From Patescibacteria group bacterium (GTDB lineage: Bacteria > Patescibacteriota > Minisyncoccia > Phycocordibacterales > UBA2100), in assembly GCA_038064835.1 (NCBI GenBank), contig JBBTSD010000010.1, positions 1-61,958 of the forward strand: a stretch of DNA of 61,958 nucleotides, written 5' to 3'. Both the position numbers and the translations under genes were made by a program. A model generated the notes under the pieces. It saw only the letters and a list, made by a program, of their open reading frames with translations, was not told where the DNA came from and made no database searches. Shown piece by piece: positions 32,162-61,958 of this stretch (positions are counted from its first letter, which is position 1; each line of letters opens with the position of its first letter).

Positions 32162-32971
32162 TTAGCGGCTAATAAGCCGTTTAGTGAGGTTTACATCAGC
32201 AAGGAGCTCCTCACTGTTCCTCAACTTTCTCACAATACGGTACCAGGATGTGGGCACATCAGTTACTGTGGGCGCGACTGTACGCATCCACTCCATATGA
32301 AGTCCGACATCCCCCGTGTGTGGATTACGCCTCGTATAGTGAAGAATCTGGCAGTTCTTCATACCCGCCCTTCCCCCATCAGCAAAATGCTCGCGAGCAA
32401 ATTCTTCCGGGGTCATGTCTTCGTACAAAATACGAAGTGCCCAGAGCACCTCTCCGTGAGCGACGAGCAAAACCCGCTTTCCTATATATTCGCGAGCAAA
32501 CCGATCGCGCATGATTTCAAGACGCACACACACATCGGAGAGCCGTTCGCCTCCGTGTGGACGAAAGAAGTACGGTTCCTCATGTCGCTGTTGCAAAGCG
32601 ACACGAAAGGCTTCGAGACGACCCTTTTCGGTCATTTGTGTAAGAATGCCCCAGTCCCGCTCGTGCAAGTAGGGGCTTACCTCCCACAATGCACCAGGCA
32701 AATCTAAGTATGCGGCACTTTCTCGTGCGCGTACAAAACCCGAAACAAAGTGGGCGTCAAAAGGCGCCTCTGCGGTGAGATGTTTTTGTATCCATGTGGA
32801 CGCGACCCTTACCTGCTCAACTCCCTTGTCGGTCAAGCGAAACTGCGCATCCTGTCGCCGAAGGAATTCGGGCGTGAAGTCACTGTCGTCAGCATGGCGC
32901 GACCGACGGGCGGCCAAGTTTATCTCTGATTCTCCATGTCGCATAGCGACAATGTCGATGGGCATCGGCAT
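32162..32971 (-). CDS. histidine phosphatase (PGAM-like) family protein
   Basis: The RHG motif is VAMRHGESEINL. Also FVSGFVRARESAAYL, and a second His in LLVAHGEVLWAL. Confidence 0.8.
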   Translation of the reverse strand: MPMPIDIVAMRHGESEINLAARRSRHADDSDFTPEFLRRQDAQFRLTDKGVEQVRVASTWIQKHLTAEAPFDAHFVSGFVRARESAAYLDLPGALWEVSPYLHERDWGILTQMTEKGRLEAFRVALQQRHEEPYFFRPHGGERLSDVCVRLEIMRDRFAREYIGKRVLLVAHGEVLWALRILYEDMTPEEFAREHFADGGRAGMKNCQILHYTRRNPHTGDVGLHMEWMRTVAPTVTDVPTSWYRIVRKLRNSEELLADVNLTKRLISR

Positions 32972-37727: not shown

Positions 37728-40700
37728 CTATTCTAACATCAGATTTTCGCCTCCAAACGAAATAGTCCCCACCTGGGCAACCCGTGCGAGTTCGGTCCGT
37801 GCAAATTCAATACTCTCTCGCATACTTTCCGGAACCCGCAAGCGCGCCGGCTCCCCCGGCTTCAAACCCTTCTTTTTGCGTAGGTCTTGGACCGTACGCA
37901 GTACATCGCGCACTTCTCCCTCTCGCCTTAATTCGTCTGAAATGACTGTATCCAAACGCGCCGCATCTGCACTCTGTGTATCCACTACTACCTCTTTTAC
38001 ATTGAGCTCATCCTTCACAAGACCTAGCAGTTGTTCCGGAACAGCTGTTTTTATAGTGACCGATTGCAGAGGCTGACGGACTTTGATATTTGCTGCCGCC
38101 CGTGCTTCGAGCCCTACTGAAATAAGAAGCCGGATTTTTTTCATCTCCGCCAATAATTTTTGTTGGTCATTTGAAAGTGGCGTACTAGCAGGCCAGTCTG
38201 CAAGATGTACGCTCTCTTTCTCTCCCCCGAGTTCACGATAGATGTGTTCCGCCACAAATGGCATAAATGGCGCCGTAACTTTGGAAAATTCTCGCAGGAC
38301 ATAATGCAGTGTCCCCAACGCCGACGCCTTGTCAGTTTCGTCTTCCCCTTTCACCCTGTCGCGCGACCTGCGCACAAACCATGTTGAGAGGTCGTCGATG
38401 AAGTCTGCAAGCGGTCGTGCGGCACGGTCAACCTGGTACGCATCGAGAGCTCCTGAAACGGTGACGATGAGTTCTTGTAGCCGAGCAAGTATCCAACGAT
38501 CAAGGACCTGCGCACTCTCTCCAGACGGGGTGTGCGGGTATTCGCGGAACAGATTGTAAAACGAGAGTACATTAAGGAGACGGCCATTATTTTTCTTCAG
38601 AATCTCGTCTACCACTTTCTCGTCAAAATTTTTCGAAGCCCCCGGCTCGTTCACGGTAAACATCCAGTAACGAAGCGCGTCCACACCATACTTTGGAATC
38701 ATATCCCACGGCTTGATGACATTCCCGAGCGACTTTGACATTTTCTTGCCCTTGTCATCAAGCAAATGCCCGAGCGAAATGACATTTTTGTACGACATCC
38801 CTCGTCCCATCAAAACACCAATCGCATGAAGTGTGTAAAACCACCCGCGCGTCTGGTCGATTGCTTCAGAAATAAAGTCTGCAGGGTACCCCTTACCATC
38901 AACCCATTCTTTGTTTTCAAATGGGTAATGATCTTGGGCAAATGGCATGGCACCCGAGTCGAACCATACATCCATGACTTCCTGTATGCGCTCGTACTCT
39001 TCTCCTTCGTGAACGAGCTTTACTTCGTCGATAAACGGACGATGTACATCACATTCATATTCAGCGTTGTGTGGTAGTGGAGTAAAATCAAGCGTGCGAA
39101 TTTCTGCTGTTTTGAGGTAACTGTTTTTAACAATCTGAAGCGCTCGCTCTTTTGAAGCGCCTTCGGCCACAGCCGCGGCCATCCAAGTAGTATCTCCGTG
39201 CGCCACGATAAAGACCGTTTCGTTTTTATGCGATGCGTCAATGGTATAGAGAAATTCGCCAACACGACGGCGCACATCTCCCACACTCTCGCCACCATCC
39301 GGCTTGTTCTCAAATACAGAAGGTGTGTCTGGAAATGCCTGGTTGTACTCTTTGAGAGTTTTTCCCTCATAACTCCCGAGTGCAATTTCGGTCAGCCGCT
39401 TGTCGGTAACTACCCTCTCTGAAGGTACCCCCAGAACTTCAGCGACAATTTTTGCAGTCTCTTGAGTTCGCGTGAGTGGTGACACATAAATATAGTCGAC
39501 TTTCGGACCCTTGTAGGCAGTGGCAGCTGCACGAACTTCGTTCTTCCCTTTCTCGGTCAGCGAAATCTTCTTTGCAGGATCGGAGCTCAAAATACCTGAT
39601 GCATTTGATTCTGCATCACCATGACGCATCATGAAATACTGATTACTGGAACGGTTCGCCATTTTTTCACGGAGCTCCGAGAGAGACCCGACTACTAACA
39701 TTTTCCCTGTTTTGGAAAGCCAGATAGGTAGCGGTGTTCCCCAATAACGATTCCGACTTATCGCCCAGTCCTTTACTTCTTTAAGCCACTCTCCAAAACG
39801 CCCGTCGCGAATGTGCGCCGGTTCCCAGTGGATTTTTTGATTCTCCGTCATGAGCTCTGCACGGAGAGCCGACATACGGATATACCAGGAATCACGCGCA
39901 TAATAGATGAGCGGTCGCTTGCAACGCCAACAATGCGGGTACGCATGCGTTGTTTCTTCGGTTTTGAGCACCTTATCACCAAGCGCAACAATCACTTTCT
40001 CGTTCGCGTCCTTGACGAACACACCGGCAAATTCAATCACCGCATCGATAAATTTCCCTTCCTCATTCACCAAATGATGTTTCGGGAGACCGACCTTTGT
40101 GCCCATGTCGAAGTCTTCGGCACCGTACATAACAGCGGTATGCACAACTCCGGTACCGTCTTCAGTAGTTACAAAATCAGCAGCATATATCTTGTATGCA
40201 TTAGGAAGTTTGTCTTGTTGCTCTTTAGGAAGCGAGTCAACTAGATACGGAAAAAGAGGTTCATACACGCGCCCCACCAACTCACTCCCCTTTTTTTCTG
40301 CAATCACCGTAGCTCCTGCCAACACTGAAAGTCGTTCGGTTGCAACCCATATTTTTTTGTCAGCAATCTGTGTGAGTGAATATGAAATTTTATCACCTAC
40401 CGCGAGCGCCACATTCCCAGGGAGAGTCCACGGCGTTGTCGTCCACGCGGCAATATGTTCGTCGGAGTCGCGTAATTTGAAAGCCACGAATACCGATGTG
40501 TCAGTTACATCTTTGTATCCATCGGCAACTTCATGGGAAGACAATGGTGTGCCGCACCGAGCGCACCAGGGCACAACGCGGTAGTCTTTATAGAGAAGAC
40601 CTCGTTCGTGTACTTTTTGTACGATATGCCATACCGACTCTATGTATTCGTTTGCAAAAGTAAAATAGGTTTGTGAGTGATCAACCCAAAATCCAATACG

Positions 40701-41102
40701 GTCTGTAAAATCTTTCCATTCCCCGATATAGCGCAAAACGCTTTCCTTGCACTTCGCATTGAATTTTTCAACACCGTAGGCCTCGATATCCTTTTTGTTT
40801 TTTAGACCCAGCTCTTTTTCGACTTCAAGCTCGACAGGAAGTCCGTGCGTGTCCCATCCCGCTTTTCGGCGCACGCGAAACCCCTGCATGGTTTTATAGC
40901 GCGGAATAAGGTCTTTGAATGCGCGCGCTTCCAGGTGGTGAATTGCAGGATGGTTGTTTGCCGTTGGTGGCCCCTCATAGAAGACAAAGTCGCCTGCAGG
41001 CGCCTCTCTCTCGAGAGACTTTTTGAATATATCGTTTTCTTTCCAAAATTGTAGAGTCGCCTCCTCGCGGAGCGCTGTTTCACTCTTTGGTTTCTCTTCC
41101 AT
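37728..41102 (-). CDS. ileS: isoleucine--tRNA ligase with an inserted histidine-phosphatase domain
   Basis: The HIGH region is PPTANNHPAIHH. Editing-domain motifs TTTPWTLPGN and GTGVVHTA are present, along with WAISRNRYWGTPLPIW and the KMSKS motif. It is 1124 aa, about 190 aa longer than usual, because of an in-frame PGAM-like insert at residues ~487-680. Confidence 0.93.
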   Translation of the reverse strand: MEEKPKSETALREEATLQFWKENDIFKKSLEREAPAGDFVFYEGPPTANNHPAIHHLEARAFKDLIPRYKTMQGFRVRRKAGWDTHGLPVELEVEKELGLKNKKDIEAYGVEKFNAKCKESVLRYIGEWKDFTDRIGFWVDHSQTYFTFANEYIESVWHIVQKVHERGLLYKDYRVVPWCARCGTPLSSHEVADGYKDVTDTSVFVAFKLRDSDEHIAAWTTTPWTLPGNVALAVGDKISYSLTQIADKKIWVATERLSVLAGATVIAEKKGSELVGRVYEPLFPYLVDSLPKEQQDKLPNAYKIYAADFVTTEDGTGVVHTAVMYGAEDFDMGTKVGLPKHHLVNEEGKFIDAVIEFAGVFVKDANEKVIVALGDKVLKTEETTHAYPHCWRCKRPLIYYARDSWYIRMSALRAELMTENQKIHWEPAHIRDGRFGEWLKEVKDWAISRNRYWGTPLPIWLSKTGKMLVVGSLSELREKMANRSSNQYFMMRHGDAESNASGILSSDPAKKISLTEKGKNEVRAAATAYKGPKVDYIYVSPLTRTQETAKIVAEVLGVPSERVVTDKRLTEIALGSYEGKTLKEYNQAFPDTPSVFENKPDGGESVGDVRRRVGEFLYTIDASHKNETVFIVAHGDTTWMAAAVAEGASKERALQIVKNSYLKTAEIRTLDFTPLPHNAEYECDVHRPFIDEVKLVHEGEEYERIQEVMDVWFDSGAMPFAQDHYPFENKEWVDGKGYPADFISEAIDQTRGWFYTLHAIGVLMGRGMSYKNVISLGHLLDDKGKKMSKSLGNVIKPWDMIPKYGVDALRYWMFTVNEPGASKNFDEKVVDEILKKNNGRLLNVLSFYNLFREYPHTPSGESAQVLDRWILARLQELIVTVSGALDAYQVDRAARPLADFIDDLSTWFVRRSRDRVKGEDETDKASALGTLHYVLREFSKVTAPFMPFVAEHIYRELGGEKESVHLADWPASTPLSNDQQKLLAEMKKIRLLISVGLEARAAANIKVRQPLQSVTIKTAVPEQLLGLVKDELNVKEVVVDTQSADAARLDTVISDELRREGEVRDVLRTVQDLRKKKGLKPGEPARLRVPESMRESIEFARTELARVAQVGTISFGGENLMLE

Positions 41103-41928: not shown

Positions 41929-43037
41929 GCTACTTTCTCCTTGGGTTGGGTTTCAGTCTGTCCGCGCGCCGCGACCGGCGTGCGATCTGCCCGTGCCTGC
42001 GGCACGGGAGATTCTACTGACCCGAACAGATTTCTGTCAGGCACAAATCGTTCACCATCGACGAACATGCGCTTGAATGCGTCATGGAACGGCGCAGGGA
42101 TTTGATTGAGTGGTCGTGCAGTCGCCGGGTATTTCACCGACTTATCGAAGACCGTGACCCGCCCCATAATTCGTTGAGGAAGATCCATGCCGTCAATAGT
42201 ACCTGCGTAGGGATCTGTGTATGTGAGCATACGCATGGCGATAACCATGAAGCTGTACCAATCGGTCAGTTCGGCGTGGGGTGCCACCAGGCAGAACTGC
42301 GCACCCAAGGGTGGCGTTACTGCCCAATGGTAGATATTCCCCGCCAGTCGTTTGAGGAACAGTTTTCTCAAGATGTGGGCAGTAACACGCCCAATCCCCT
42401 TCAAAATAGCCCTGCCATACTTGCCGGCTCGATTCGGATTGACCGTGCCGATTATTTCCGGCGCAGTGAAGCGTGGAGTAAATGCACGGCACAGAAACCC
42501 CGCATACTGCATCGAGTCGATCTCGATGAAGTGCGGCACCGCTCCTTTCCGTGAGACGATTACATTGAACTCATTTAAGTCACCTACAACCATGCCCTTC
42601 TGGTGAAGGGCACTGATCGTGTCGTGCATCTTGCCGAGCACTTCAAGCGCATACCCTTGGGGCAAATGCGCCTGAGGGCTCGTCATCGCGTCGATGGTAT
42701 ACCCGTCGACAAACGGCATGATATACCCCATCACAATCCCACTGGGGATTACGAGAACAGCGCTTGGCTGAACCACATTTTCGGGAAGCCCATCCGGAAT
42801 CTTGAACAGCTTTTGTTGCATGTCCGCAATACGGACCTTTGCCGCTTCCTGGAGCGGCTCCTGGCCGACGAGTTCGTCGCATCCGGGTGTATGGAATACT
42901 TTCGCGACAAGTCCCGGCTTCAAGCGATATACAACCGCCTCACCACCGCGACCGACCTCCTCAAACCTTCCTTGTTGCCATGAGGTAACCTCAACGCGGG
43001 GGATCTCTCCCATGTGTCCATCTCCTTTCTCAGACAT
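41925..43037 (-). CDS. atypical Hanks-type Ser/Thr protein kinase
   Basis: The Gly-rich loop is VGRGGEAVVY, followed by VAKVF (VAxK). The catalytic loop is VVGDLNEFNVIV (D..xxN) and the metal-binding motif is IEIDS. Its start overlaps the PP2C stop (TAATG). Confidence 0.75.
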   Translation of the reverse strand: MSEKGDGHMGEIPRVEVTSWQQGRFEEVGRGGEAVVYRLKPGLVAKVFHTPGCDELVGQEPLQEAAKVRIADMQQKLFKIPDGLPENVVQPSAVLVIPSGIVMGYIMPFVDGYTIDAMTSPQAHLPQGYALEVLGKMHDTISALHQKGMVVGDLNEFNVIVSRKGAVPHFIEIDSMQYAGFLCRAFTPRFTAPEIIGTVNPNRAGKYGRAILKGIGRVTAHILRKLFLKRLAGNIYHWAVTPPLGAQFCLVAPHAELTDWYSFMVIAMRMLTYTDPYAGTIDGMDLPQRIMGRVTVFDKSVKYPATARPLNQIPAPFHDAFKRMFVDGERFVPDRNLFGSVESPVPQARADRTPVAARGQTETQPKEKVA

Positions 43038-44257
43038 TACTTCTGCGACACTTTGGGTGGGGTGCCACTTTGTGGTGGATTCACCTTTTGTGTCGGTGGC
43101 GGTGCTGGAGGTGGAATGTAACTGACGATGTCCATTCCAACTGTCTGCAAGACGCGCACCATCCAGGTATCGTCAGAGGCAACGAATTTGTCGGCAAGCC
43201 GATTTCGTAGACGAGTTACCTCGTCCATCAATCGCTTGATGTCTTCAGCGGCCTTTCGCTCCGCCACTTCGCGGACTTGGCGCACACTTTCTGTACTACG
43301 CTTCGCAACCTCTATGTCTTCTCGCGACCTCTTGAGAGAAGCCTCGAGTCGATCGTTTTCTCTTTCGAGATCCTGGAAGTCAGTGCGTAGAGTTGCCAAC
43401 TCGCTCATGGTCGCATCAAAGCGACCTCTGAGCTCGGCAACCTCGTTCCGCTCCGCCTCGAGACGCATTTGCGCCTCGTTGGAACGCAGAATAAGTATGG
43501 TGGTATCGTCGCCGCACTTGCCAAAGGCAAATGCACCGTTGACAAAGCGCTCGGTCGCCTGGCTATCGAGCCAGCTCCTGAGCGCCCCTTCCTTCATCAA
43601 TCCCGGATGGTAGATACTCTCGTCGCCGATGAGCGATTCAACACCATCGGTACCAACGACTATACCTTTTTGTACACTTCCTAAACTGACTTCTGCAACC
43701 GGCACGAGTGCCAGATGCTTCTTCAGCTCGTCGGTGTGATATCCGGTCTTTTGGAGAAGTGCGTAGCCCAGATAGGGCGGCGCATTCAGCGTTGCGAGCG
43801 GCGGATCCATGTAGGTCGTTTTGCCATCAATGGCAAAAACGCCGTCTCCACACGCAGCGATAACGACCTGGTCATCGTAGGTCACCACCACAAGAGCGGT
43901 GAACAACAGATAGTCAGCGACCACCTGCTCGAACTCGGGAACACTGGACTCAGTCTTCCCGGTCAGCGTTTGCGCAATTTTGCGCAATTCATTTAGCGTG
44001 GCGCGAGTAATCCCCGGCCAATTGAGACTGACCCCGGCAGTATGATTGACTTGGCGCAGAACCTCTCCTGCGATAATGCGTGCGCCGATAGTGGCGCCCA
44101 CATCAGTGTGCGGACGAGAGCCACAGCCATCGCACAAAACGGCAACAATGCCATGATCGTGCTCGACGGCCGTGTACGCATCTTGGTTATTCTTCTTTCC
44201 ACCCTGTCCAGGCAGAACATGATCTGATCCAACGACACTTTCGATCGCGTAGTGCAT
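43037..44257 (-). CDS. PP2C-family Ser/Thr phosphatase with a C-terminal coiled coil and Pro-rich tail
   Basis: PP2C motifs: KKNNQDAY, AVLCDGCGS, ACGDGVFAIDG and VGTDGV. The C-terminal ~130 aa are heptad-like (EAERNEVAELRGRFDATMSELATLRTDFQDLERENDRLEASLKRS). The tail is PPPAPPPTQKVNPPQSGTPPK. The start is placed at ATG 44257, which has an AAAGGAAA RBS; the ORF-track GTG at 44302 remains possible. Confidence 0.8.
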   Translation of the reverse strand: MHYAIESVVGSDHVLPGQGGKKNNQDAYTAVEHDHGIVAVLCDGCGSRPHTDVGATIGARIIAGEVLRQVNHTAGVSLNWPGITRATLNELRKIAQTLTGKTESSVPEFEQVVADYLLFTALVVVTYDDQVVIAACGDGVFAIDGKTTYMDPPLATLNAPPYLGYALLQKTGYHTDELKKHLALVPVAEVSLGSVQKGIVVGTDGVESLIGDESIYHPGLMKEGALRSWLDSQATERFVNGAFAFGKCGDDTTILILRSNEAQMRLEAERNEVAELRGRFDATMSELATLRTDFQDLERENDRLEASLKRSREDIEVAKRSTESVRQVREVAERKAAEDIKRLMDEVTRLRNRLADKFVASDDTWMVRVLQTVGMDIVSYIPPPAPPPTQKVNPPQSGTPPKVSQK

Positions 44258-44365
44258 CCCATTTCCTTTCTTTTTGATTTTCGAAGAGCTGCGTGTTGCC
44301 ACACAGGTCTGATTGGAACCTACTATGATTTTTGCACTGTGTCAAGTTTCCGCCCGCCTTCGCTT

Positions 44366-46107: not shown

Positions 46108-46140
46108 AAAGACCGCCACTTGTGTAGTGGCGGCTCTTTT
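46108..46140 (-). terminator. hairpin terminator after tmk
   Basis: The GCCGCCAC/GTGGCGGC stem is flanked by A-rich and T-rich runs and overlaps the tmk stop. Confidence 0.55.
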
Positions 46141-46822
46141 ATGAAAAATCACATTGGAGTCGCACCAACTCCCACACTTTTTCATGAATAGCTTCCGGCG
46201 GGAGCAGTGCTCCTTCTGGAGCACATTCAACTACTTGCCACGCATCTTTCCGCGCAGAAGCAAGTTCGCGATAGCATGCCGCAACTCGCGCTTGATAAGA
46301 CATGTCTGCCTCATGCTGGTCTTTGGCCCCTTCCGCAATGTATGTCCGTGCAGCTTTTTGCTCCACCAACCTGAATGAAACCTCGACTGGCACGGAGAGA
46401 TAGAGTACCAATGTTGGCACCGGCATTCGTATCTCTTCATGTTCGACTGCTTCCACAAATTCAATGTAACGCTGTCGCTCGTCCGCATCTGCTATTTTTG
46501 CCGCGCCGTAGGCGAGATTGCTTGATATATAACGGTTACAAATAACAATATCTGCATCCGCCAATGCCGTCCTCATCTCGTCCCGCGCAGCTGCACGATC
46601 AAGCATGTATGGAATTGAGGCGAGGTATGGCGATGTCGCCAGAAAATCTCCATGCCGACCTGCGAGCACATCGCCAATAAGTTTTCCCGTGCGCTGACCA
46701 TAGCGAGGAAAATCAAACACTGTTGCTTTCAGTCCCCGTGCATCGCACCGGCTGCACAATAAAGCAACTTGCGTTCCTTTGCCTGCACCATCCGCACCGT
46801 CGACAACAATTAATCTGCTCAT
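46139..46822 (-). CDS. tmk: thymidylate (dTMP) kinase family
   Basis: The P-loop is VVDGADGAGKGTQ. The DRY-equivalent is CNRYISSNLAYG. A LID-region Arg is present. Confidence 0.85.
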   Translation of the reverse strand: MSRLIVVDGADGAGKGTQVALLCSRCDARGLKATVFDFPRYGQRTGKLIGDVLAGRHGDFLATSPYLASIPYMLDRAAARDEMRTALADADIVICNRYISSNLAYGAAKIADADERQRYIEFVEAVEHEEIRMPVPTLVLYLSVPVEVSFRLVEQKAARTYIAEGAKDQHEADMSYQARVAACYRELASARKDAWQVVECAPEGALLPPEAIHEKVWELVRLQCDFS

Positions 46823-46831
46823 AGTGTTCTC

Positions 46832-47386
46832 CTAGTCTCGCAGTAGTATATCGGCTAGTGAGTTGATTGCGCGAACACTATCATCGTGGTCATTGTGTGG
46901 TGCACGCATAAGAAATGCACGGTCAGTGACAGGGGTCGCGTCGCGCACATGTCGTGGATCATCGTCAACAAACACATTCGCACCGCGAATGTACTCGACC
47001 TTACTTTCATTGTGTCCAACACCCACGCACTCAAGTGGCGTCCCATGAGCAACAAGCCACCGCTCTGCATCCCTCAACATATCTCCCGTGCGTGCGGTCA
47101 CTACGCGTACCTGCACACCTTTTTCAGTCCACAGCGCAATGGTTTCTAATGATTCGGGATACGGTGCCAACTCTTGGATCGACAGAGGGTTCGTATATGC
47201 CTCGTTTTGTATATCACGATATTCATTGAGCGTGAGCGAGCTCTTCCCTGCTTCTATGCGGCCACTAGATAATTCGCCAGGTTCCACTGCGCGAGCGAGC
47301 ATTCGTTCAGCGATAGTTTTTTTAAGTGCCGCCGTGTCCGCGATGACGCCATCAAAATCAAGAACGATAAGGTGATTCATATTCAT
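46832..47386 (-). CDS. HAD-family 5'(3')-deoxyribonucleotidase-like protein
   Basis: Motif I is LDFDGVIAD, with VVTAR and VFVDDDP also present, and a C-terminal FLMRAPHND resembling NT5C/YorS-type enzymes. The start is placed at ATG 47386, because the ORF-track start is a TTG. Confidence 0.55.
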   Translation of the reverse strand: MNMNHLIVLDFDGVIADTAALKKTIAERMLARAVEPGELSSGRIEAGKSSLTLNEYRDIQNEAYTNPLSIQELAPYPESLETIALWTEKGVQVRVVTARTGDMLRDAERWLVAHGTPLECVGVGHNESKVEYIRGANVFVDDDPRHVRDATPVTDRAFLMRAPHNDHDDSVRAINSLADILLRD

Positions 47387-47428
47387 ATATTCATTAAAAC
47401 ATAGGACGGCCACCAAAGTGGCCGTACC

Positions 47429-48088
47429 CTACCCGTCTAGCCCCACATACTTCAGATTGCGGAACAACTCGGGCCGAAGGTTATTGTAGCGCTCTTCCCG
47501 CGGCGGCTTCGTATTCACAACACGCACCTGATCCCACTCATGAAGATCTGTAGGAAACCGTGCTGTCACTGGTTCCACAATAACCGTTTCAAGTGTCGTG
47601 CCAATCTGTTTTGCAAGATACATGCGATGTACCCCATCCAGCAAAACCCACCCACTAGGACCGCATTCGACAATAGGAGGCACATAATGCGCAATTGCCG
47701 ACACTCCTGTCTGTGTCTTTCCATAGGCAATACATGCCCCGAGTTTCGCCATGCCTCGTGCGACACAAAATGCACCGAACGACGCCTCGAAGCCTTCGAG
47801 AAATTGCTGGTACTTGCTTCGTTCGACAAATGTCTGCCCCAGACGAACAGCATGCGGGTCTACTCGAAGCGTAGTGATACGCGCGTGTTTGTACACATCT
47901 CCTCGCCCATCTGCAAGCGGCACTGCACACATTACTGCACGCAGATAATCGCGGCGCATAGGTTGAACACTTTCGATACTTGCGAGTTGACGCAATGACA
48001 CCACCTCACTACACTCTCCCGTTGTATGCGGGAGTACAGCAAGTCGCACCCGTGCAAGAAACTCATCTATGGGGATTGGATCAAACAT
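47429..48088 (-). CDS. ParB/Srx-fold domain protein
   Basis: The C-terminal half, YVPPIVECGPSGWVLLDGVHRMYLAKQIGTTLETVIVE, matches the ParB-like nuclease/NTPase core (P.iv....g.y.llDG.HR..A....G....v.v). Confidence 0.5.
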   Translation of the reverse strand: MFDPIPIDEFLARVRLAVLPHTTGECSEVVSLRQLASIESVQPMRRDYLRAVMCAVPLADGRGDVYKHARITTLRVDPHAVRLGQTFVERSKYQQFLEGFEASFGAFCVARGMAKLGACIAYGKTQTGVSAIAHYVPPIVECGPSGWVLLDGVHRMYLAKQIGTTLETVIVEPVTARFPTDLHEWDQVRVVNTKPPREERYNNLRPELFRNLKYVGLDG

Positions 48089-48198: not shown

Positions 48199-48888
48199 AT
48201 GTATACTACATCTATGGAAATGCACATGATCCAACGACACATACTCCGTAGGCTCGCGTCTCACAAAACACTGCGTTATGGCGAAATGAAACCAGCCCAC
48301 ATCGAAGGCAACCAATTCAGCTACCACCTCAAGACCCTTATTCGTCTTGGTTTTGTTGCACACAAAGATCGCGGATACAACCTTTCTACCAAAGGTGTCC
48401 ACTACTCAACCCAGGTCAATTTCGAACATTTTTCGGTGCGTATCCAACCAAAAATAGCCACGCTTATTGTCTGCAAAAACAACGCGGGAAAATATCTTAT
48501 ATACACAAGAAACAAACAGCCGTTCATTGGTATGGACGGATTTCCGTACGGGAAGATCCACCTAGGGGAACGGATTGCCGTTGCCGCCAAGCGCGAGCTG
48601 CAGGAAAAAATCGGCATCAGTGCAAGGCTTGCTCACAAAGGAATGATGTATTTGGCAGTTACTGATCATGCGGGCGAAATGATTGCACACACCTTGTTCC
48701 ATGTGTTTTTGGGAACGACCGACAAAAACGGGGCTTCTACAGAATCCCCCTTGGGCCGTATCCGCTGGCTCAGTGAAAAAGAACTCCTCGCGCAGAATGT
48801 TATGCCCGGTGTCCCTGAGGCACTTAAGATGGCAAAAAGCACTTCGCGCTGCTTGGCATTTGAAGAATACGAATTCCAAGAAGGATGA
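48199..48888 (+). CDS. winged-helix + Nudix hydrolase fusion
   Basis: The N-terminal wHTH is ILRRLASHKTLRYGEMKP...NQFSYHLKTLIRLGFV. The Nudix box is GKIHLGERIAVAAKRELQEKIGI (Gx5Ex7REUxEExGU). Confidence 0.8.
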   Translation: MYTTSMEMHMIQRHILRRLASHKTLRYGEMKPAHIEGNQFSYHLKTLIRLGFVAHKDRGYNLSTKGVHYSTQVNFEHFSVRIQPKIATLIVCKNNAGKYLIYTRNKQPFIGMDGFPYGKIHLGERIAVAAKRELQEKIGISARLAHKGMMYLAVTDHAGEMIAHTLFHVFLGTTDKNGASTESPLGRIRWLSEKELLAQNVMPGVPEALKMAKSTSRCLAFEEYEFQEG

Positions 48889-48977
48889 AGGGCACGCGAT
48901 TCGTCCAGCGTAGTTACCTTGCGTGAACAAGGTGTGCGCCGTAGAGTGCGCACAGAAAATCTTTGAAAGGACAGATC

Positions 48978-49868
48978 ATGTACTTGCCGTATAGAAAGCG
49001 TACGCCCGATACTCAGTACCAGGAAGCACTCCGCTTCATCATGAAGTGTGGGGATATCCTAGAAACTCCGCAAGATGTACCTGCGCGCACCTGCTTCGGG
49101 GTATCGCCCCCTCTTGTGTATTTCCTACACAACGGTGCGCCCATCATCACCGAACGACAGATGGGATGGCGCGCGCCGATTGGTGAGATGTGTGCATTCA
49201 TCAACGGTGTGCAGGACTTTGCGGTGATGAAGTCGGAGTTTGGTGTTCCCGCTCCTTTTTGGGAGCCATGGGTGACCGAACAGAAATGCGCAAAAGTCGG
49301 TGCAGAGACAGGTCATTTAGGCGACGCCTCGTATGGACCGGCTCTTGCCGCATTCCCGATGTCTGACGGCCGCACTTTTGACCAGTTTGCCCATGTGGTG
49401 AACATGCTTTCGGACGCAAAGCTCCGGAAGCGACGCACCATCTATGCAACCGCTTGGATTCCATTCATGAATGGGTGGGGTGGAAACCAGCGTGCGGTCG
49501 TATCACCATGTCATGGCTTCATTCACTTTCGTGCCATTGGTAACAAACTTGACCTTGTGTCATGGCATCGCTCGGCTGATATGCCACTCGGTTTCCCGAA
49601 TGACATGATTGCATACACCGCGCTTCTGCTTGCGGTGGGACATCTCACCAAGCTCGCACCTCGGCGCATCATCTTTCAGCTGAGCGATGCGCATATCTAC
49701 GAGAATCAGGTCGAGGCGGTCCGCACGCTCGCGTATTCTGAGCCGCGTCGTCTGCCAACACTGACGCTGGTGCATGATATTCAAAACCTGCGCGAGCTCC
49801 GGAGAGAACATTTTGAACTCACGGACTATCACCCACACGCTCGGATGAACATCCCCACATCTGTGTAA
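48978..49868 (+). CDS. thymidylate-synthase (ThyA) family enzyme with Asp at the Asn177-equivalent position
   Basis: It aligns without gaps to E. coli ThyA from Cys146 to Tyr181: SPCHGFIHFRAIGNKLDLVSWHRSADMPLGFPNDMIAY. Cys146, Arg166, Ser167, Asp169, Gly173 and Pro175 are conserved, and position 177 is Asp. Also conserved: RRTIYATAW (R126/R127), FWEPW and DAHIY. The start at ATG 48978 follows an AAAGGA RBS. Confidence 0.85.
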   Translation: MYLPYRKRTPDTQYQEALRFIMKCGDILETPQDVPARTCFGVSPPLVYFLHNGAPIITERQMGWRAPIGEMCAFINGVQDFAVMKSEFGVPAPFWEPWVTEQKCAKVGAETGHLGDASYGPALAAFPMSDGRTFDQFAHVVNMLSDAKLRKRRTIYATAWIPFMNGWGGNQRAVVSPCHGFIHFRAIGNKLDLVSWHRSADMPLGFPNDMIAYTALLLAVGHLTKLAPRRIIFQLSDAHIYENQVEAVRTLAYSEPRRLPTLTLVHDIQNLRELRREHFELTDYHPHARMNIPTSV

Positions 49869-49877
49869 GGAGGATAT

Positions 49878-50333
49878 ATGACCGTCAACTTTGACCATGC
49901 GCGCGACGACGAGCAGCGCCGTCGCATGCAACGCGCACTCGACACTGGAGAATGTCTCTTGTGTCGCGAAAATATCGAGCGCTACCATGACCGTCCAATT
50001 CTATTGGAGGGCGCCTACTGGCTTGTAACTGAAAATGCTTTTCCGTACGAAGGCGCAACACTGCACCATTTGGTGGTGTATACCAGGGGTCATGAAACTG
50101 ACTTTCGTGCCATACCCCCCGAGGCATGGACAGAGCTCCAGGTACTACTTAGTTCTGTTGCCGACACACACGGTGTTTCAGGTGGCTCGCTCGTGATGCG
50201 CTTTGGTGACACGAAAATCACCGGCGCCACATTGGCACACCTGCACGCACATCTCATTGTCGGTGAACCTTTCGCAGACAAACGAAATGAATCTCTTCGT
50301 GTAAAAGTTGGATACAAGAAGGCCTCGGGATAA
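49878..50333 (+). CDS. HIT-family nucleotide hydrolase/transferase
   Basis: The histidine triad is AHLHAHLIVG. A perfect AAGGAGG RBS lies 6 nt upstream. Confidence 0.8.
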   Translation: MTVNFDHARDDEQRRRMQRALDTGECLLCRENIERYHDRPILLEGAYWLVTENAFPYEGATLHHLVVYTRGHETDFRAIPPEAWTELQVLLSSVADTHGVSGGSLVMRFGDTKITGATLAHLHAHLIVGEPFADKRNESLRVKVGYKKASG

Positions 50334-50346
50334 TCCGAGGCCTTTT
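50321..50346 (+). terminator. terminator overlapping the HIT stop codon
   Basis: GGCCTCGGGATAATCCGAGGCCTTTT. The TAA stop (50331-50333) sits in the loop. Confidence 0.8.
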
Positions 50347-50350
50347 CTTA

Positions 50351-50506
50351 TACCATCTCCAATTAACGCTCCGACACTAATACATTCTTGAATTTTGAGC
50401 GAGAAACGAGTCGGAGCGCAAGTCATATCGAGATATGGCGAGCGCGAGACGAAGTTTTGCAGCCTAAATTCAAGAATGTATGTGGGATGGCTAATTGGAG
50501 ATGGTA
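50351..50506. mobile_element. MITE-like palindromic element, copy 2 (156 bp)
   Basis: Termini are TACCATCTCCAATTAACGCTCCG (left) and, read as the reverse complement, TACCATCTCCAATTAGCCATCCC (right). An inner inverted pair is ACATTCTTGAATTT (50382-50395) and AAATTCAAGAATGT (50466-50479). TTA flanks both ends directly (50348-50350 and 50507-50509); the second is the stop codon of the minus-strand deaminase gene. Confidence 0.6.
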
Positions 50507-51370
50507 TTACACCACATACACAAGCTCTACACCCGCGCTCTTCAGTACATCAGGGGTGTTAAGCCCGTAACTTCCAGAACTGAAGAAGAGTTTCTTGATA
50601 CCTGCGCGTGCAACAATCTTGGCGCACGGTTCGCATGGGAATGTGGTGATATGAAGGTCACACCCTTCTGTCCGCACACCTCTGCGTGCCGCCTCGGCAA
50701 CAAGCACCGATTCGGCATGTTCGGCAGTGCTCGTCTCGATCATCTGTCCGCTTTTAAAAAGCGACCGAGGATCGCCATACACATAGGGCATTTGTTCATG
50801 AGGCACATGTGTATTATGTGCAACTAAAAGCACTTCCCCATCTCGACTCAAGACAGCGCCTACTTGCCGCCACCAATCGCCGCTTTTTACGGATTCGCCA
50901 CCCGCAATCTTGAGAAGCTCTCTGTCACGGAATGCGCTTGAGACAGTGAAGTCCGCAACTAGTGATGCGTCTTCTCGTGCCTGTACGCGCTGTCTATCGA
51001 ACCGCAGGAAAAAAGGTGAGAAAGACACTACTTTTCCGGGAAGGAATTTCTCGGCAAAAGCGTGCGACACATCTTCGTCCGGCATGGTAACGAGAGATGT
51101 GGATGCCTGGATCAGTGGGATTGTTTCTTCGTCGAGTACGCACACCGCAATCCTTTTTGAAAGAGTGCCGAGAGCTCGTGCCATTACTTCAGTTGGCACA
51201 GCCCGTACGACATCTTTCCGCACCACATATTCCAACTCGACACCAAGGTGCGAGACAATATCCGGCAACAGCAGATACAGTGTTTTGAGAGAAAAACCGC
51301 ACTGCTCGATGAACCGCATGTACCCACGATGAAGCACCGGCACATAGGCAATAGCAACGGTATCACTCAT
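50507..51370 (-). CDS. dCMP deaminase (CDA fold) with an unrecognised ~130-aa N-terminal domain
   Basis: The C-terminal zinc motifs are TAEHAESVLVAEAARRG and TTFPCEPCAKIVARAGIKKLFF. The N-terminal segment IAYVPVLHRGYMRFIEQ may be a degenerate HxGH nucleotidyltransferase-like motif. Confidence 0.8.
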   Translation of the reverse strand: MSDTVAIAYVPVLHRGYMRFIEQCGFSLKTLYLLLPDIVSHLGVELEYVVRKDVVRAVPTEVMARALGTLSKRIAVCVLDEETIPLIQASTSLVTMPDEDVSHAFAEKFLPGKVVSFSPFFLRFDRQRVQAREDASLVADFTVSSAFRDRELLKIAGGESVKSGDWWRQVGAVLSRDGEVLLVAHNTHVPHEQMPYVYGDPRSLFKSGQMIETSTAEHAESVLVAEAARRGVRTEGCDLHITTFPCEPCAKIVARAGIKKLFFSSGSYGLNTPDVLKSAGVELVYVV

Positions 51371-52011
51371 GTCGAATCTCCTTCTTTCTTTCCACTTACC
51401 GTCGAAAGCGTATCTTGAAGAATGCGCGGGATTTCATCTTGGAGACGCTTGGCGAAAGCCTCGAGCCCATCAATCATCATGAGCCGCAACCGTGCTGTTG
51501 TACCCTTCTGTGACTGTGCCTCAAGCACATGAAGTTCACCACAGTACTCCTTCATGCCTTTGATCTCGTCCTCTTTATGTTCGCTTGTGTGCGACACAAT
51601 GAGCACGTGCGGGCGAACCGCCTTGAGCAGTTCCCATTTGGGTGCGTCAACGTGTTTGAGCACCACCAGATTTACATACCGCAAGTGCGCAAGCATCACC
51701 ATTCGTTCGTCTTCACCAACGATTGGGCGAAACTTGCCTTTGCGTTTCTTGACCTTGGCGTCTGAGTCAACACCGACCACCAAAAATGTCCCGCGCTCGC
51801 GCGCTCGCGACAGGTACTCAGCATGTCCGGTATGGACCAAGTCCCATGTACCCGATGTGAGCACAATCTTTTGACCGAGCATCTTCGCGGCTTCCACAAT
51901 GCGGGCAACCTCGTCGATATCTCGTTTGATGCGCTCTGCGCAGTTTGCCTCGGTACCGAGGACACCGCCATAAACGCCCATGCGTCCATGCTCCTTTTTC
52001 ACAACACTCAT
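51367..52011 (-). CDS. cytidylyltransferase-family (TagD / RfaE-domain-II-like) nucleotidyltransferase
   Basis: LTSGTWDLVHTGHAEYLSRARERGTFLVVGVDSD is the (T/H)xGH motif in a Rossmann context. Its stop overlaps the deaminase start (ATGA). Confidence 0.75.
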   Translation of the reverse strand: MSVVKKEHGRMGVYGGVLGTEANCAERIKRDIDEVARIVEAAKMLGQKIVLTSGTWDLVHTGHAEYLSRARERGTFLVVGVDSDAKVKKRKGKFRPIVGEDERMVMLAHLRYVNLVVLKHVDAPKWELLKAVRPHVLIVSHTSEHKEDEIKGMKEYCGELHVLEAQSQKGTTARLRLMMIDGLEAFAKRLQDEIPRILQDTLSTVSGKKEGDST

Positions 52012-52132
52012 AGCTTCTCCTTAGATAACACGCGTATGCCCTTGCACACAAAGTCAAATTCATTGTACTCAAGTGTTCTTCCCCTAGACGCGCTCCTGCG
52101 CTACCATACCGAAAGGGACGGAGAGCAAGTCA

Positions 52133-52633
52133 ATGCTTCATGGTAAAAAAATCTCGATTATTGTCGCCTGTACTCCTGCGTGGGTTATTGGTTACAAAAA
52201 CACGATTCCCTGGAAAGCGCCTGCTGACCTTGCTCGGTTCAAACGCCTTACCATGGGCCACGATGTGGTGATGGGGCGTACGACATACGACTCCATTATC
52301 GCGAAATTAAAAAAACCACTTCCTGGGCGCCACACCATTGTGGTGACTCGGAATAGCTGTCTCGGCAGTAACACGGACCGTACCATTGCACATTCGTTTG
52401 ATGAAGCTGTTTTGCAAGCCCGAGGCGACGAAGTGTTTGTTGCTGGAGGTGCCGAGATATACAAGTTGGCACTTCCCCACGCCGACACCCTGCATCTCAC
52501 GCTCGTCTATACAAAAACTTTAGGCGATACGCACTTCCCTTGGTGGAACTCTGATGAATGGCATCTTGTCATCGAGCGCACTGATCCTGGAAGCACTCCG
52601 CAGACCAAATACATTCAGTACAAACGAACCTAA
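52133..52633 (+). CDS. folA: dihydrofolate reductase
   Basis: ISIIVA...VIGYKNTIPWKAPADLARFKRLTMGHDVVMGRTTYDSI...RHTIVVTRN...VFVAGGAEIY. Confidence 0.9.
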   Translation: MLHGKKISIIVACTPAWVIGYKNTIPWKAPADLARFKRLTMGHDVVMGRTTYDSIIAKLKKPLPGRHTIVVTRNSCLGSNTDRTIAHSFDEAVLQARGDEVFVAGGAEIYKLALPHADTLHLTLVYTKTLGDTHFPWWNSDEWHLVIERTDPGSTPQTKYIQYKRT

Positions 52634-60464: not shown

Positions 60465-61568
60465 CTAGACTCTTAATATTTTTAGAAGCTCCGAGAATAT
60501 GTAGACACTTTCTCTACCCTGCCCATCATATTCCTTTAATACACCTGCTTCTACAAATTTAGCTATCAGATTATAGGTCGTTCCCTTACTGCTTGCTTTA
60601 ATAGCTTCTCGTACATTTGCAGCCGTTATAATCGGGCTTTTAAAGATAGCGTCTAAAACAGCTATTGCGTGCTGTGATCTTATTTTCCCCACAACATCCT
60701 CTTTCAAGCGCTCGTAGAGTGCCTGTATTTCTTTTGCCATGACAGTTGTTCGTTTTGCTTGAAACTCAACAGCGATAAGAAAGAATTTAAGCCACGGTAT
60801 CCATTCTTGGTCTGTATCTACGGCATGCAAAAGACGCTGATACTCCACCTTGTGTTCTTCAAGGTGATGGCTGATAAACAACACGGGCGTTTGCAAGACT
60901 CTCTCTTGGCACAAGAACAAGGGTATGACGAGGCGTCCAATTCTTCCATTGCCGTCCATGAATGGGTGAATCGCCTCAAATTGATAGTGCGCAACTCCTA
61001 TCCTGACCAATACATCAGTTTCAGCATCTGAGTTTAGATATTTCTCCCAATTACTCATCAGACCAGAAATATCTGTATGCACAGGCGGTATATAATCACC
61101 CACCCTCACTTGCTCTTTTCTAAAGTTTCCACGATCTTTATTTGCTCCTCTCACCGAATCAAGAAGAACACTGTGGGTAGCTTTGAGAAGAGTTTCGGCG
61201 ATAGGACGCTCTTTTAATTTTTTTAAAGCAACACTCATTGCCTGTTCGTAATTCATAACCTCTTTGATGTCTTGAACCTTCCGACTCATCTCTTCTTTTT
61301 CGGGGTTAGCTTTTGATTCATCCAAGGCTTCATATTTGAGAACCTCTTCAAGAGTTGCTCGTGTACCTTCTATGGCTGAACTAGCGACAGCCTCCCTTTT
61401 TCTAAAGGGAGCAATCAAAAGATCGGGATTTGGTATTGCGTCTAAAAATCCTCTTAACTCACCGACCGCCGCGTGAGCGGCAGTAAGCTCTCTCATTAGA
61501 GGTTCATATGAGAGTTTGGGCGGGAGTTCTTTTACCTTTGTTGGTTTTATTTCTTTTGATTCCGACAT
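60465..61568 (-). CDS. Fic family protein (AMPylase/adenylyltransferase-type)
   Basis: The Fic motif is HPFMDGNGRIGRL. A C-terminal wHTH-like segment is present. The gene looks AT-richer than its neighbours by eye. Confidence 0.88.
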   Translation of the reverse strand: MSESKEIKPTKVKELPPKLSYEPLMRELTAAHAAVGELRGFLDAIPNPDLLIAPFRKREAVASSAIEGTRATLEEVLKYEALDESKANPEKEEMSRKVQDIKEVMNYEQAMSVALKKLKERPIAETLLKATHSVLLDSVRGANKDRGNFRKEQVRVGDYIPPVHTDISGLMSNWEKYLNSDAETDVLVRIGVAHYQFEAIHPFMDGNGRIGRLVIPLFLCQERVLQTPVLFISHHLEEHKVEYQRLLHAVDTDQEWIPWLKFFLIAVEFQAKRTTVMAKEIQALYERLKEDVVGKIRSQHAIAVLDAIFKSPIITAANVREAIKASSKGTTYNLIAKFVEAGVLKEYDGQGRESVYIFSELLKILRV

Positions 61569-61628: not shown

Positions 61629-61958
61629 GCGCAAGTCCTCGGTTCAATATGTGCATAAAGGCTATTTTAGGGCCTTGTGCCTCTATCAGGCAGGATTATT
61701 CACAATGCTCATTACATTCATTCCTAAACGTATTTAGACGCATTCTATGTGATTCGGTTGGAACCGATCAATTCTCTTTACAGGTCAATACTTTTTCGCA
61801 AAATGCGTTAGTTTTCGTATCCCGAGGACAGGACGCGGTTGGAACCGCCGACAACGCCGACAAGGTCGGATAAAAACGGGAAAACTAGAAAAATTTCTTA
61901 CTCTGTGCGCAGGAGAGGACTTGGTCACAGATAATTTTGTACCCAAAATTTCCGCGAC

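Follow-up and report, generated by a model that had tools for sequence, protein, structure and literature searches.

To our knowledge, it is taken to hold for all cells with ThyA that thymidylate is made from deoxyuridine monophosphate (dUMP), and the members of the thymidylate synthase (TS) family that act on cytosine nucleotides belong to phages, for DNA hypermodification, and to a few antibiotic pathways, not to housekeeping metabolism. Here we describe a ThyA-fold enzyme, the synthase, encoded in a 61,958-nucleotide stretch of DNA (the window; contig JBBTSD010000010.1 of assembly GCA_038064835.1) from a Patescibacteria group bacterium. It occupies the position of the housekeeping thyA gene and is predicted to methylate deoxycytidine monophosphate (dCMP).

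The nearest precedent is the pathway of phage Xp12, for which infected cells were reported in 1982 to carry out 'a new thymidylate biosynthesis' (Kuo et al. 1982). The TS homologues of Xp12 and PaMx74 make 5-methyl-dCMP, and the deaminases encoded in cis are selective for 5-methylcytosine (5mC), act on the triphosphate and yield dTTP. This type of methylase and deaminase pairing was extended to metaviromes between 2021 and 2024. Canonical dCMP deaminases also accept 5-methyl-dCMP. In the limited literature covered, no homologue with Asp at position 177 was found as a housekeeping enzyme, only those of phages and of two antibiotic pathways (MilA and BcmA, both hydroxymethylases).

The substrate and product of these enzymes follow a small number of residues, which are numbered here as in E. 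coli ThyA unless the synthase is specified. Asn at position 177 goes with dUMP and Asp with dCMP or CMP, and Asp177 marks all of the verified dCMP- or CMP-modifying homologues (PMC8670742, PMC6400193, PMC13326640, PMC5175136). The N177D mutation converts a TS to a dCMP methylase, and the E. coli, L. casei and T4-type enzymes can all be switched between dUMP and dCMP (summarised in PMC8670742; PMC6400193). A hydrophobic residue at position 143 excludes water and makes hydride transfer possible, giving a methyl product with release of dihydrofolate (DHF) (PMC6400193, PMC13326640). Hydroxymethylases are recognised by Asp or Glu at 143, a Ser-x-Tyr motif and loss of both Trp83 and the C-terminal tail, and release tetrahydrofolate (THF) (PMC6400193). 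D169N denotes a 5-hydroxy-dCMP synthase of the RB69 gp48 type (PMC13326640), and Ala167/Lys126 admits ribo-CMP, as in MilA and BcmA (PMC5175136).

The synthase has 296 amino acids. AGGA lies 8 nt 5' of its ATG, the mechanical start of the open reading frame (ORF) being a TTG at 48963. In the Pfam scan it matches PF00303 from end to end (E 4.7e-43, profile positions 2-265 of 266), and it scores below all of the NCBIfam ThyA equivalog cut-offs (best 125.9 against 327 bits; 103.5 against 108.35 for TIGR03284). When aligned by phmmer with the thymidylate synthases of the PDB, the segment RSADMPLGFPNDMIAY falls on RSADMGLGVPFNIASY without gaps, and there are likewise zero gaps between HRSADMPLGFPNDMIAY and QRSADMGLGVPFNIASY of solved TS. 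The register is identical in a MAFFT alignment with E. coli ThyA. Cys146 (Cys178 of the synthase, codon 49509-49511), His147, Arg166, Ser167, Asp169, Gly173, Pro175 and Tyr181 are conserved, as are Glu58, Trp80, Trp83, Tyr94, His207 and Tyr209, while position 176 is Asn and position 177 is Asp. The AlphaFold model, with 61 homologues, has a predicted local distance difference test score (pLDDT) of 96.3 and superposes on the E. coli TS ternary complexes at 1.3-1.5 Å (TM-score 0.96-0.97). The closest solved structures are the E. coli, M. tuberculosis and human TS, with a root-mean-square deviation of 1.3-2 Å and TM-scores of 0.95-0.97 on the target.

An earlier reading of the window, made by a model from the letters and a list of ORFs (the sequence-only reading), had placed Asp at the Asn177 position in a gapless alignment from Cys146 to Tyr181, and this is borne out by phmmer, by MAFFT and by the superposition. 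It had also named a way in which it could be wrong, namely that the preceding Asn176 is the specificity residue. No alignment places Asn176 there, and such a register shift was rejected as Arg166, Asp169, Gly173, Pro175 and Tyr181 are spaced as in E. coli ThyA; since the spacing from Arg166 to Tyr181 is identical, it would require two compensating indels within the helix. The T4 dCMP hydroxymethylase carries an equal Asn-Asp pair in the alignment (FGFRND179), of which Asp179 is the experimentally defined specificity determinant (PMC6400193). A sequencing error or a lone odd sequence was also rejected, Asp177 being common to about 40 independent sequences.

At the diagnostic positions the synthase reads Asp177, Val143, Asp169 (its Asp201), Trp83 (its Trp98), Ser167 (its Ser199) and Arg126. 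Around the catalytic-base Tyr it has Ala117-Ser118-Tyr119 (A-S-Y, with no Ser-x-Tyr), and the C-terminal tail, '...NIPTSV', is kept. Of the marks of a canonical dUMP-specific ThyA it lacks Asn177, Gln165 and an NCBIfam equivalog score. Those of a dCMP methyltransferase are present: Asp177, a hydrophobic residue at 143 together with Asp169, and linkage to a gene of the dCMP deaminase family and to dihydrofolate reductase (DHFR). A dCMP hydroxymethylase of the T4 gp42 type was rejected on Val175 (position 143), the missing Ser-x-Tyr and the presence of the tail and Trp83; a 5-hydroxy-dCMP synthase of the RB69 gp48 type on Asp201 in place of D169N; and a CMP hydroxymethylase of the MilA/BcmA type on Ser199 and Arg at 167/126, a deoxyribose-type pair. 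From these residues we predict that the synthase is a reductive dCMP methyltransferase rather than a hydroxymethylase. DHFR is kept in the cluster of the Asp177 loci L001, L008, L010, L011, L089 and L092, which fits continued production of DHF, and serine hydroxymethyltransferase (SHMT) also stays in Asp177 loci of relatives.

Asp177 is shared with the nearest relatives of the synthase. The homologue set comprised the 120 closest proteins out of 5.8 billion, all of which, where named, come from metagenome bins of Patescibacteria/CPR (candidate phyla radiation). Asp177 is found in 38 of them, those most similar to the synthase (at least 53% identity), and Asn177 in the other 82. The residues at positions 165 and 177 are paired as His-Asp (HD) in 37, Gln-Asn in 81, Gln-Asp in one and Lys-Asn in one; in E. 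coli we take Gln165 to be second shell to Asn177. Enlarging the family set with sequences from 80 species-representative genomes gives 40 HD proteins and 155 with Asn177, 154 of which have Gln165, along with a few of the Gln-Asp type (P0038, L014 and L092). None of these 155 other family members has Asp177. The HD type is rare more widely, with about 5 of 542 confirmed matches in 185,579 species genomes, and in its entirety the HD clade is covered by one of 1.84 billion cluster representatives (482 bits), the next match being at 273 bits. Asp177 is a trait of a Paceibacteria lineage, one of the ultra-small CPR bacteria of groundwater, and its clade has about 40 proteins, nearly always with Q165H.

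In a neighbour-joining tree of the family the HD group is monophyletic in 49 of 50 bootstraps, and its sister, in 50 of 50, is the L092 synthase. Because L092 is Gln165/Asp177, N177D preceded Q165H. The L014 synthase, also Gln165/Asp177, pairs with the Asn177 protein P0055 in 49 of 50 bootstraps and is, most parsimoniously, probably a second and independent switch from Asn to Asp. Asp177 occurs without His165 in these two and in P0038, which lies inside the clade. Gln180, found in 151 of the 155 Asn177 proteins, is lost in all three Asp177 lineages, being Ser or Ala in the HD clade, Met in L092 and Gly in L014, and the positions that separate HD from Asn177 proteins cluster round the pyrimidine site (163, 164, 165, 171, 172, 176 and 180). 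We infer that the pyrimidine pocket of the synthase was retuned from uracil to cytosine. His165 may tune the protonation of Asp177, which must donate to N3 of cytosine. Position 167 also varies: it is Ala in 19 of the 38 Asp177-clade synthases (among P0002-P0037) and Ser in all of the Asn177 relatives and in the window synthase.

As a separate observation, Asp177 together with a hydrophobic residue or Thr at 143 and with Asp169 is seen in eight other 50%-identity clusters (P0291, P0297, P0298, P0299, P0307, P0313, P0333 and P0349) drawn from the best 150 library representatives. Some of their contigs are up to 380 kb, and the viral relatives of P0349 are at most 42% identical to it.

The strongest of the new evidence comes from the neighbouring deaminase, a two-domain 'long' protein of the dCMP deaminase family with 287 residues. 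Its zinc domain contains HAE at 218-220 and PCEPC at 245-249, and in its AlphaFold model (pLDDT 90.7) the nearest folds are the dCMP deaminases of T4, S-TIM5, S. mutans, PBCV-1 and human. In CDADC1, Tyr457 faces C5 of the substrate and clashes with the 5-methyl group of 5-methyl-dCTP, and its counterparts are Tyr153 of T4, Trp121 of PBCV-1 and Trp128 of the Xp12 5-methyl-dCTP deaminase (PMC12088426). In the window deaminase the residue in register with T4 Tyr153 is Ser267. This position is Tyr in 66 of 66 Asn177 loci, whereas it is Ser, Ser, Ser and Trp in the four Asp177 loci that have a long deaminase, namely the window, L089, L092 and L014 (Fisher 1.1e-6, two independent events); the Trp of L014 is the residue seen in the Xp12 enzyme. 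The PC of PCxxC is followed by Pro in 62 of the 66 and by Glu, Val, Ala and Ala, respectively, in the same four. The L088 deaminase, beside the Asn177 sister of L014, has both Tyr267 and Pro247. Ser267 occurs in five of the 120 database homologues of the window deaminase, in each case without Pro247. For one of these, P0165 (S267/A247, 44% identical, on a 94-kb contig), an Asp177 synthase next door was predicted beforehand and then found, and this locus is one of the four counted above.

Thus the C5-facing residue of the deaminase has changed wherever the synthase gained Asp177 (four of four loci, against 0 of 66 with Asn177). This would fit an enzyme that now accepts the 5-methyl product, while a mere supplier of dUMP would have no reason to change, and we predict that the window deaminase acts on the 5-methyl-dC nucleotide made by the synthase. 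In the five HD species genomes of the larger HD subclade the cluster has lost the long deaminase and contains instead a short deaminase (HAE ... WCCxxCW, with an extra Cys/His-rich insert) that is present in none of about 75 Asn177 loci. The phage relatives of this short deaminase, here called HD-B, are only weak, about 28% identical, dCMP deaminases of Gordonia phages. The N-domain of the long deaminase (residues 1-160; 50891-51370, minus strand) is predicted to have a five-stranded Rossmann-like fold and carries the conserved motifs 'Y-x-P-V-L-H-x-G-Y', 'P-D-E-D' and 'L-R-W-D'. Sequence comparison with Pfam, NCBIfam and the PDB gave no match for it, and the matches of the fold search were chiefly to the deaminase domain.

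The Asp177 gene is the positional orthologue of the housekeeping ThyA. In Asn177 and Asp177 relatives alike the synthase lies between ArgS and L11-NusG-SecE and is followed by a HIT protein, the dCMP-deaminase-family protein, a cytidylyltransferase-like protein and DHFR, often with SHMT, thymidylate kinase (Tmk) or dUTPase near. The window encodes RecA, FtsK, EF-P, L7/L12, L10, L11, S6, NusG and SecE as well as four tRNA synthetases (Met-, Ile-, Arg- and one of class II), and is 100% identical to contigs of Hainich groundwater metagenomes. A second synthase was found in none of the related loci examined, and neither ThyA nor ThyX was found among the approximately 55 window ORFs scanned or in the 9.6 kb past its right end. 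A recent phage origin or a prophage context was rejected: no phage TS exceeds 30% identity, IMG/VR holds no relative and the neighbours are cellular. The tree accordingly places the origin of the Asp177 change inside the bacterial ThyA family.

Taken together, these observations suggest that in this lineage thymidine nucleotides are made by methylation of dCMP to 5-methyl-dCMP followed by deamination, in place of the sequence dCMP to dUMP to deoxythymidine monophosphate (dTMP), a reading to which we give a probability of roughly 0.6. The synthase would bind dCMP, with Asp209 (position 177) reading N3 and N4, and Cys178 would attack C6. The methylene group of 5,10-methylene-THF would be moved to C5 and reduced by hydride transfer, giving 5-methyl-dCMP and DHF, from which the DHFR of the cluster would regenerate THF, SHMT joining the cluster in relatives. 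The neighbouring deaminase would then turn the 5-methyl-dC nucleotide into a thymidine nucleotide, at the mono- or triphosphate level, and Tmk would continue from dTMP. A hydrolase with winged helix-turn-helix (wHTH) and NUDIX domains directly upstream of the synthase is a plausible candidate for a (d)CTP pyrophosphohydrolase that supplies dCMP. The predicted route probably replaces the canonical one in this Paceibacteria lineage.

Most of what the sequence-only reading had proposed for the enzyme agrees with this picture. Its choice of dCMP over dUMP as the substrate is supported by the Asp177 clade, the residue rules and the co-variation of the deaminase; its preference for methylation over hydroxymethylation by Val143, Asp169, the absence of Ser-x-Tyr, the tail and the retained DHFR; and its suggestion of a thymidylate route through the neighbouring deaminase, without dUMP, by the co-variation at the C5-contact residue. 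It had allowed that Asp177 might turn out to be common among the canonical enzymes of the lineage, for which the count is 0 of 155, and no verified dUMP-specific enzyme with Asp came to light. The alignment and phylogeny it had proposed put the Asp177 clade inside the cellular ThyA family, apart from the phage enzymes. The folA gene, which it had called adjacent, is not the immediate neighbour and lies 2.3 kb downstream (52133-52633), past three genes of the conserved cluster.

With the dCMP methyltransferases of Xanthomonas phage Xp12 (MT664984 QNN97214) and of the Pamexvirus/Bosavirus phages (PaMx74 gp52), the synthase has in common Asp177, a hydrophobic residue at 143, Asp169 and the loss of Gln165. 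The gene clusters are also alike, in that a hydrolase (a pyrophosphohydrolase or HAD protein), a TS with Asp177, a deaminase and DHFR occur together in the phages as in the window, and the logic is the same, with dCMP methylated first and deaminated after, so that dUMP is bypassed. The phage enzymes nevertheless differ, being 26% identical to the synthase and none above 30%, while the synthase is nested in the cellular Asn177 family. It keeps His147 and a complete tail where Xp12 has Pro147 and a shorter tail, and residue 165 is His in the synthase, Leu in Xp12 and Met in the T4 dCMP hydroxymethylase. Its locus is on a bacterial chromosome, in the housekeeping thyA slot, and its partner deaminase is a two-domain protein related to the phage one in the catalytic core only. 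The identities and the tree point to convergence, not common descent, as the source of the likeness. The best reading is that the predicted route evolved independently, in cells, as a counterpart of the Xp12 pathway.

With canonical ThyA (EC 2.1.1.45; the Gln165/Asn177 enzymes of other Paceibacteria and of actinomycetes) the synthase shares the fold, catalytic residues, tail, genomic slot and neighbours. It differs by N177D, Q165H, Gln180 to Ala or Ser and about 20 further clade-specific changes, including those at 163, 164, 171, 172 and 176. The engineered E. coli N177D and L. casei N229D enzymes carry the same substitution (PMC8670742); unlike these point mutants, the synthase also has His165, Ala or Ser at 180 and Asn176 in the second shell, changes that presumably tune the protonation of the Asp and the efficiency of the enzyme. 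T4 gp42 (PDB 1B49/1B5E/6A9A) shares the Asn-Asp pair (FGFRND against GFPND) and the loss of Gln165, but its Asp145 (position 143), Ser94-x-Tyr96, Val in place of Trp83, lack of a tail and release of THF have no equivalent in the synthase (PMC6400193). The synthase is the most ThyA-like cytosine-type enzyme among those compared.

Several points weigh against the proposed route. The assignments of substrate and product rest on residue rules taken from enzymes that are at most 33% identical, and no verified dCMP methylase resembles a canonical TS as closely as the synthase does, with its His147 and full tail. Beside Asp177, His165 might in principle allow uracil to be recognised again. The dUTPase near L010, L089 and L092 would also fit the use of dUMP; its adjacency was judged neutral, as ancestral synteny, since it is found in 25 Asn177 loci. 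For the deaminase, a Tyr at the C5 position is compatible with 5-substituted substrates, as in T4 Cd and the short HD-B deaminase, and because these have Tyr the direction of the specificity change is inferred and is not readable from sequence. Long deaminases are known from just four Asp177 loci, which belong to two lineages.

A rival reading is that the synthase is an ordinary or dual-specificity dUMP-using TS, in which the His165-Asp177 pair would do the job of Gln165-Asn177, the changes in the deaminase being unrelated drift. The intact catalytic and folate-site residues, including His147 and the C-terminal tail, the canonical TS as nearest folds, the housekeeping locus with DHFR and the presence, near three Asp177 loci, of dUTPase, the classic supplier of dUMP, would all be expected of such an enzyme. 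Asn177 is, however, invariant in the 155 other family members and its replacement by Asp switches the E. coli, L. casei and T4-type enzymes (PMC8670742, PMC6400193), while L092, L014 and P0038 have the Asp without His165, so that His is no prerequisite. Unrelated drift also leaves unexplained both the change at the C5 contact of the deaminase and the swap of deaminases in five species. We consider a dUMP-using TS unlikely.

It would seem distinctly unlikely that the synthase is a dCMP methyltransferase mainly feeding 5-methyl-dCTP to replication, with 5mC replacing much or all of the C in DNA and the deaminase siphoning off a part for dTTP. The gene set does parallel the Xp12/PaMx74 cluster, in which the cis deaminase works on the triphosphate, and the L014 deaminase has the Trp of the Xp12 5-methyl-dCTP deaminase at its C5 position. 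Moreover, a NUDIX gene (in the window and L092) or a CYTH-like gene (in L001) lies upstream of the synthase only in Asp177 loci, and either could be a dCTPase. Set against this, a C5-cytosine DNA methyltransferase (L095:2775-3914) is encoded in the same genome and would find nothing to methylate in DNA with 5mC at every C, the window is free of AT drift (approximately 50% GC), a dedicated deoxynucleoside monophosphate (dNMP) kinase like those of phages was not seen and the C-domain of the deaminase is closest to monophosphate deaminases. It is a long shot that the Asp177 Paceibacteria, as the first cells to do so, modify a base ahead of replication, with a large share or all of the genomic C as 5mC; if true, 5mC derived from the nucleotide pool could protect the DNA of these episymbionts from their own or host nucleases.

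Another cytosine modification, by a dCMP or CMP hydroxymethylase (T4 gp42 or MilA) or a 5-hydroxy-dCMP synthase (RB69), is very improbable, for although Asp177 is common to all of these enzymes and the MilA change Ala167 occurs in half of the HD clade, the window synthase excluded, Val143, the absent Ser-x-Tyr, the Trp83, tail and Asp169 that are kept and the Ser167/Arg126 pair all speak against it, and a hydroxymethylase would release THF with no need of the conserved DHFR.

If the proposed route from dCMP through 5-methyl-dCMP is correct, a core pathway has been rewired in cells so that dUMP is bypassed. The mechanism would have a phage precedent in Xp12 and PaMx74 and would be less novel in kind; what would be new is a cellular lineage reordering two core steps. 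The family offers a natural series, from an Asn177 ancestor through Asp177 alone and Asp177 with His165 to replacement of the deaminase, in which two consecutive enzymes would swap order by co-evolving specificity residues, and L014/P0055 and L092/HD clade form natural control pairs. Cellular 5-methyl-dCMP synthases and deaminases tolerant of or selective for 5mC would be of practical interest for methylome sequencing, and the route raises the question of pool-derived 5mC in the DNA of some CPR bacteria.

Table 1. Coordinates of the synthase, its diagnostic residues and neighbouring genes (positions in the window; short deaminases by locus).
Feature	Position	Strand	Evidence and remarks
ThyA-fold enzyme, predicted dCMP C5-methyltransferase (5-methyl-dCMP synthase)	48978..49868	+	PF00303; Asp177, His165
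Val175 (E. coli L143, hydrophobic, methylase signature) to catalytic Cys178 (C146)	49500..49511	+	Residue table
His197, codon CAT (E. coli Gln165 position)	49566..49568	+	Alignment; co-varies with Asp177
Asp209, codon GAC (E. coli Asn177 pyrimidine-specificity position)	49602..49604	+	phmmer and MAFFT register
Two-domain 'long' dCMP-deaminase-family protein, 287 aa	50507..51370	-	PF00383, E 3.3e-12
Ser267 of the deaminase, codon AGT, in register with T4 Cd Tyr153	50570..50572	-	Equal ungapped +22 offset from Pro of PCxxC
Short HD-B deaminases	L001:11978-12550, L005:11921-12562, L008:8663-9220, L010:5464-6678, L011:11852-12460
HIT-family protein, conserved module member	49878..50333	+	PF01230, weak
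Cytidylyltransferase-like (HxGH) protein, conserved beside the deaminase	51367..52011	-	PF01467, E 2.7e-15; RfaE-domain-II-like
Dihydrofolate reductase (folA)	52133..52633	+	PF00186, E 7.6e-45; would recycle the DHF of reductive methylation
wHTH-NUDIX hydrolase directly upstream of the synthase	48199..48888	+	PF00293, E 3.5e-10
NT5C-type 5'(3')-deoxyribonucleotidase (HAD)	46832..47416	-	PF06941, E 5e-9
dTMP kinase (Tmk)	46139..46822	-	PF02223, E 8e-21; NF005923, E 3e-44

The module of TS, in some cases DHFR, HIT, long deaminase and cytidylyltransferase-like protein (48978-52633 in the window) is kept in about 75 genomes (loci L003-L087). Its hosts include many CPR phyla and the actinomycetes Streptomyces phyllanthi (L067), Actinomadura spongiicola (L061) and Actinocorallia populi (L081). 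Irrespective of the type of synthase, the HIT gene adjoins it in almost every one of about 85 related loci, and the stop of the cytidylyltransferase-like gene overlaps the start of the deaminase gene by 4 nt (51367-51370). A known anti-phage defence module was rejected, PADLOC being empty for the TS, the HIT protein and the nucleotidyltransferase and matching the deaminase core to a dCTPase model over 55 residues only.

The wHTH-NUDIX protein has weak NCBIfam matches, which include the pyrimidine (d)NTP pyrophosphatase NudG. Its only homologue (44% identity; L092:7829-8506) is in L092, the other basal Asp177 locus, and it is in none of about 75 Asn177 loci. In the phage 5mC clusters the corresponding position is taken by a pyrophosphohydrolase or a HAD hydrolase. 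The NT5C-type nucleotidase could possibly dispose of dUMP or other dNMPs. Between it and the NUDIX gene lies a 219-residue protein (47429-48088, minus strand) with a 'DGVHR' motif reminiscent of nucleotide-binding proteins of the ParB/sulfiredoxin fold; it has no family in Pfam, NCBIfam, PHROGs or PADLOC and no homologue in the related loci.

The C5-cytosine DNA methyltransferase at L095:2775-3914 (PF00145, 379 residues) lies 5.7-6.8 kb past window position 61958. Beside it is an unannotated gene for 263 residues, with which it possibly forms a restriction-modification pair.

Elsewhere in the window, the IleRS (37728-41102, minus strand, 1124 residues) has a histidine-phosphatase domain (PF00300) inserted at residues 490-657. 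The insertion is also annotated in L001, L003, L004, L005 and L088, and a separate His_Phos_1 gene is found at 32162-32971. Upstream of ArgS is a 421-residue protein (43037-44302, minus strand) with a long C-terminal coiled coil and a Pro-rich tail, and near the right end of the window is a Fic/DOC-family protein of 367 residues (60465-61568, minus strand).

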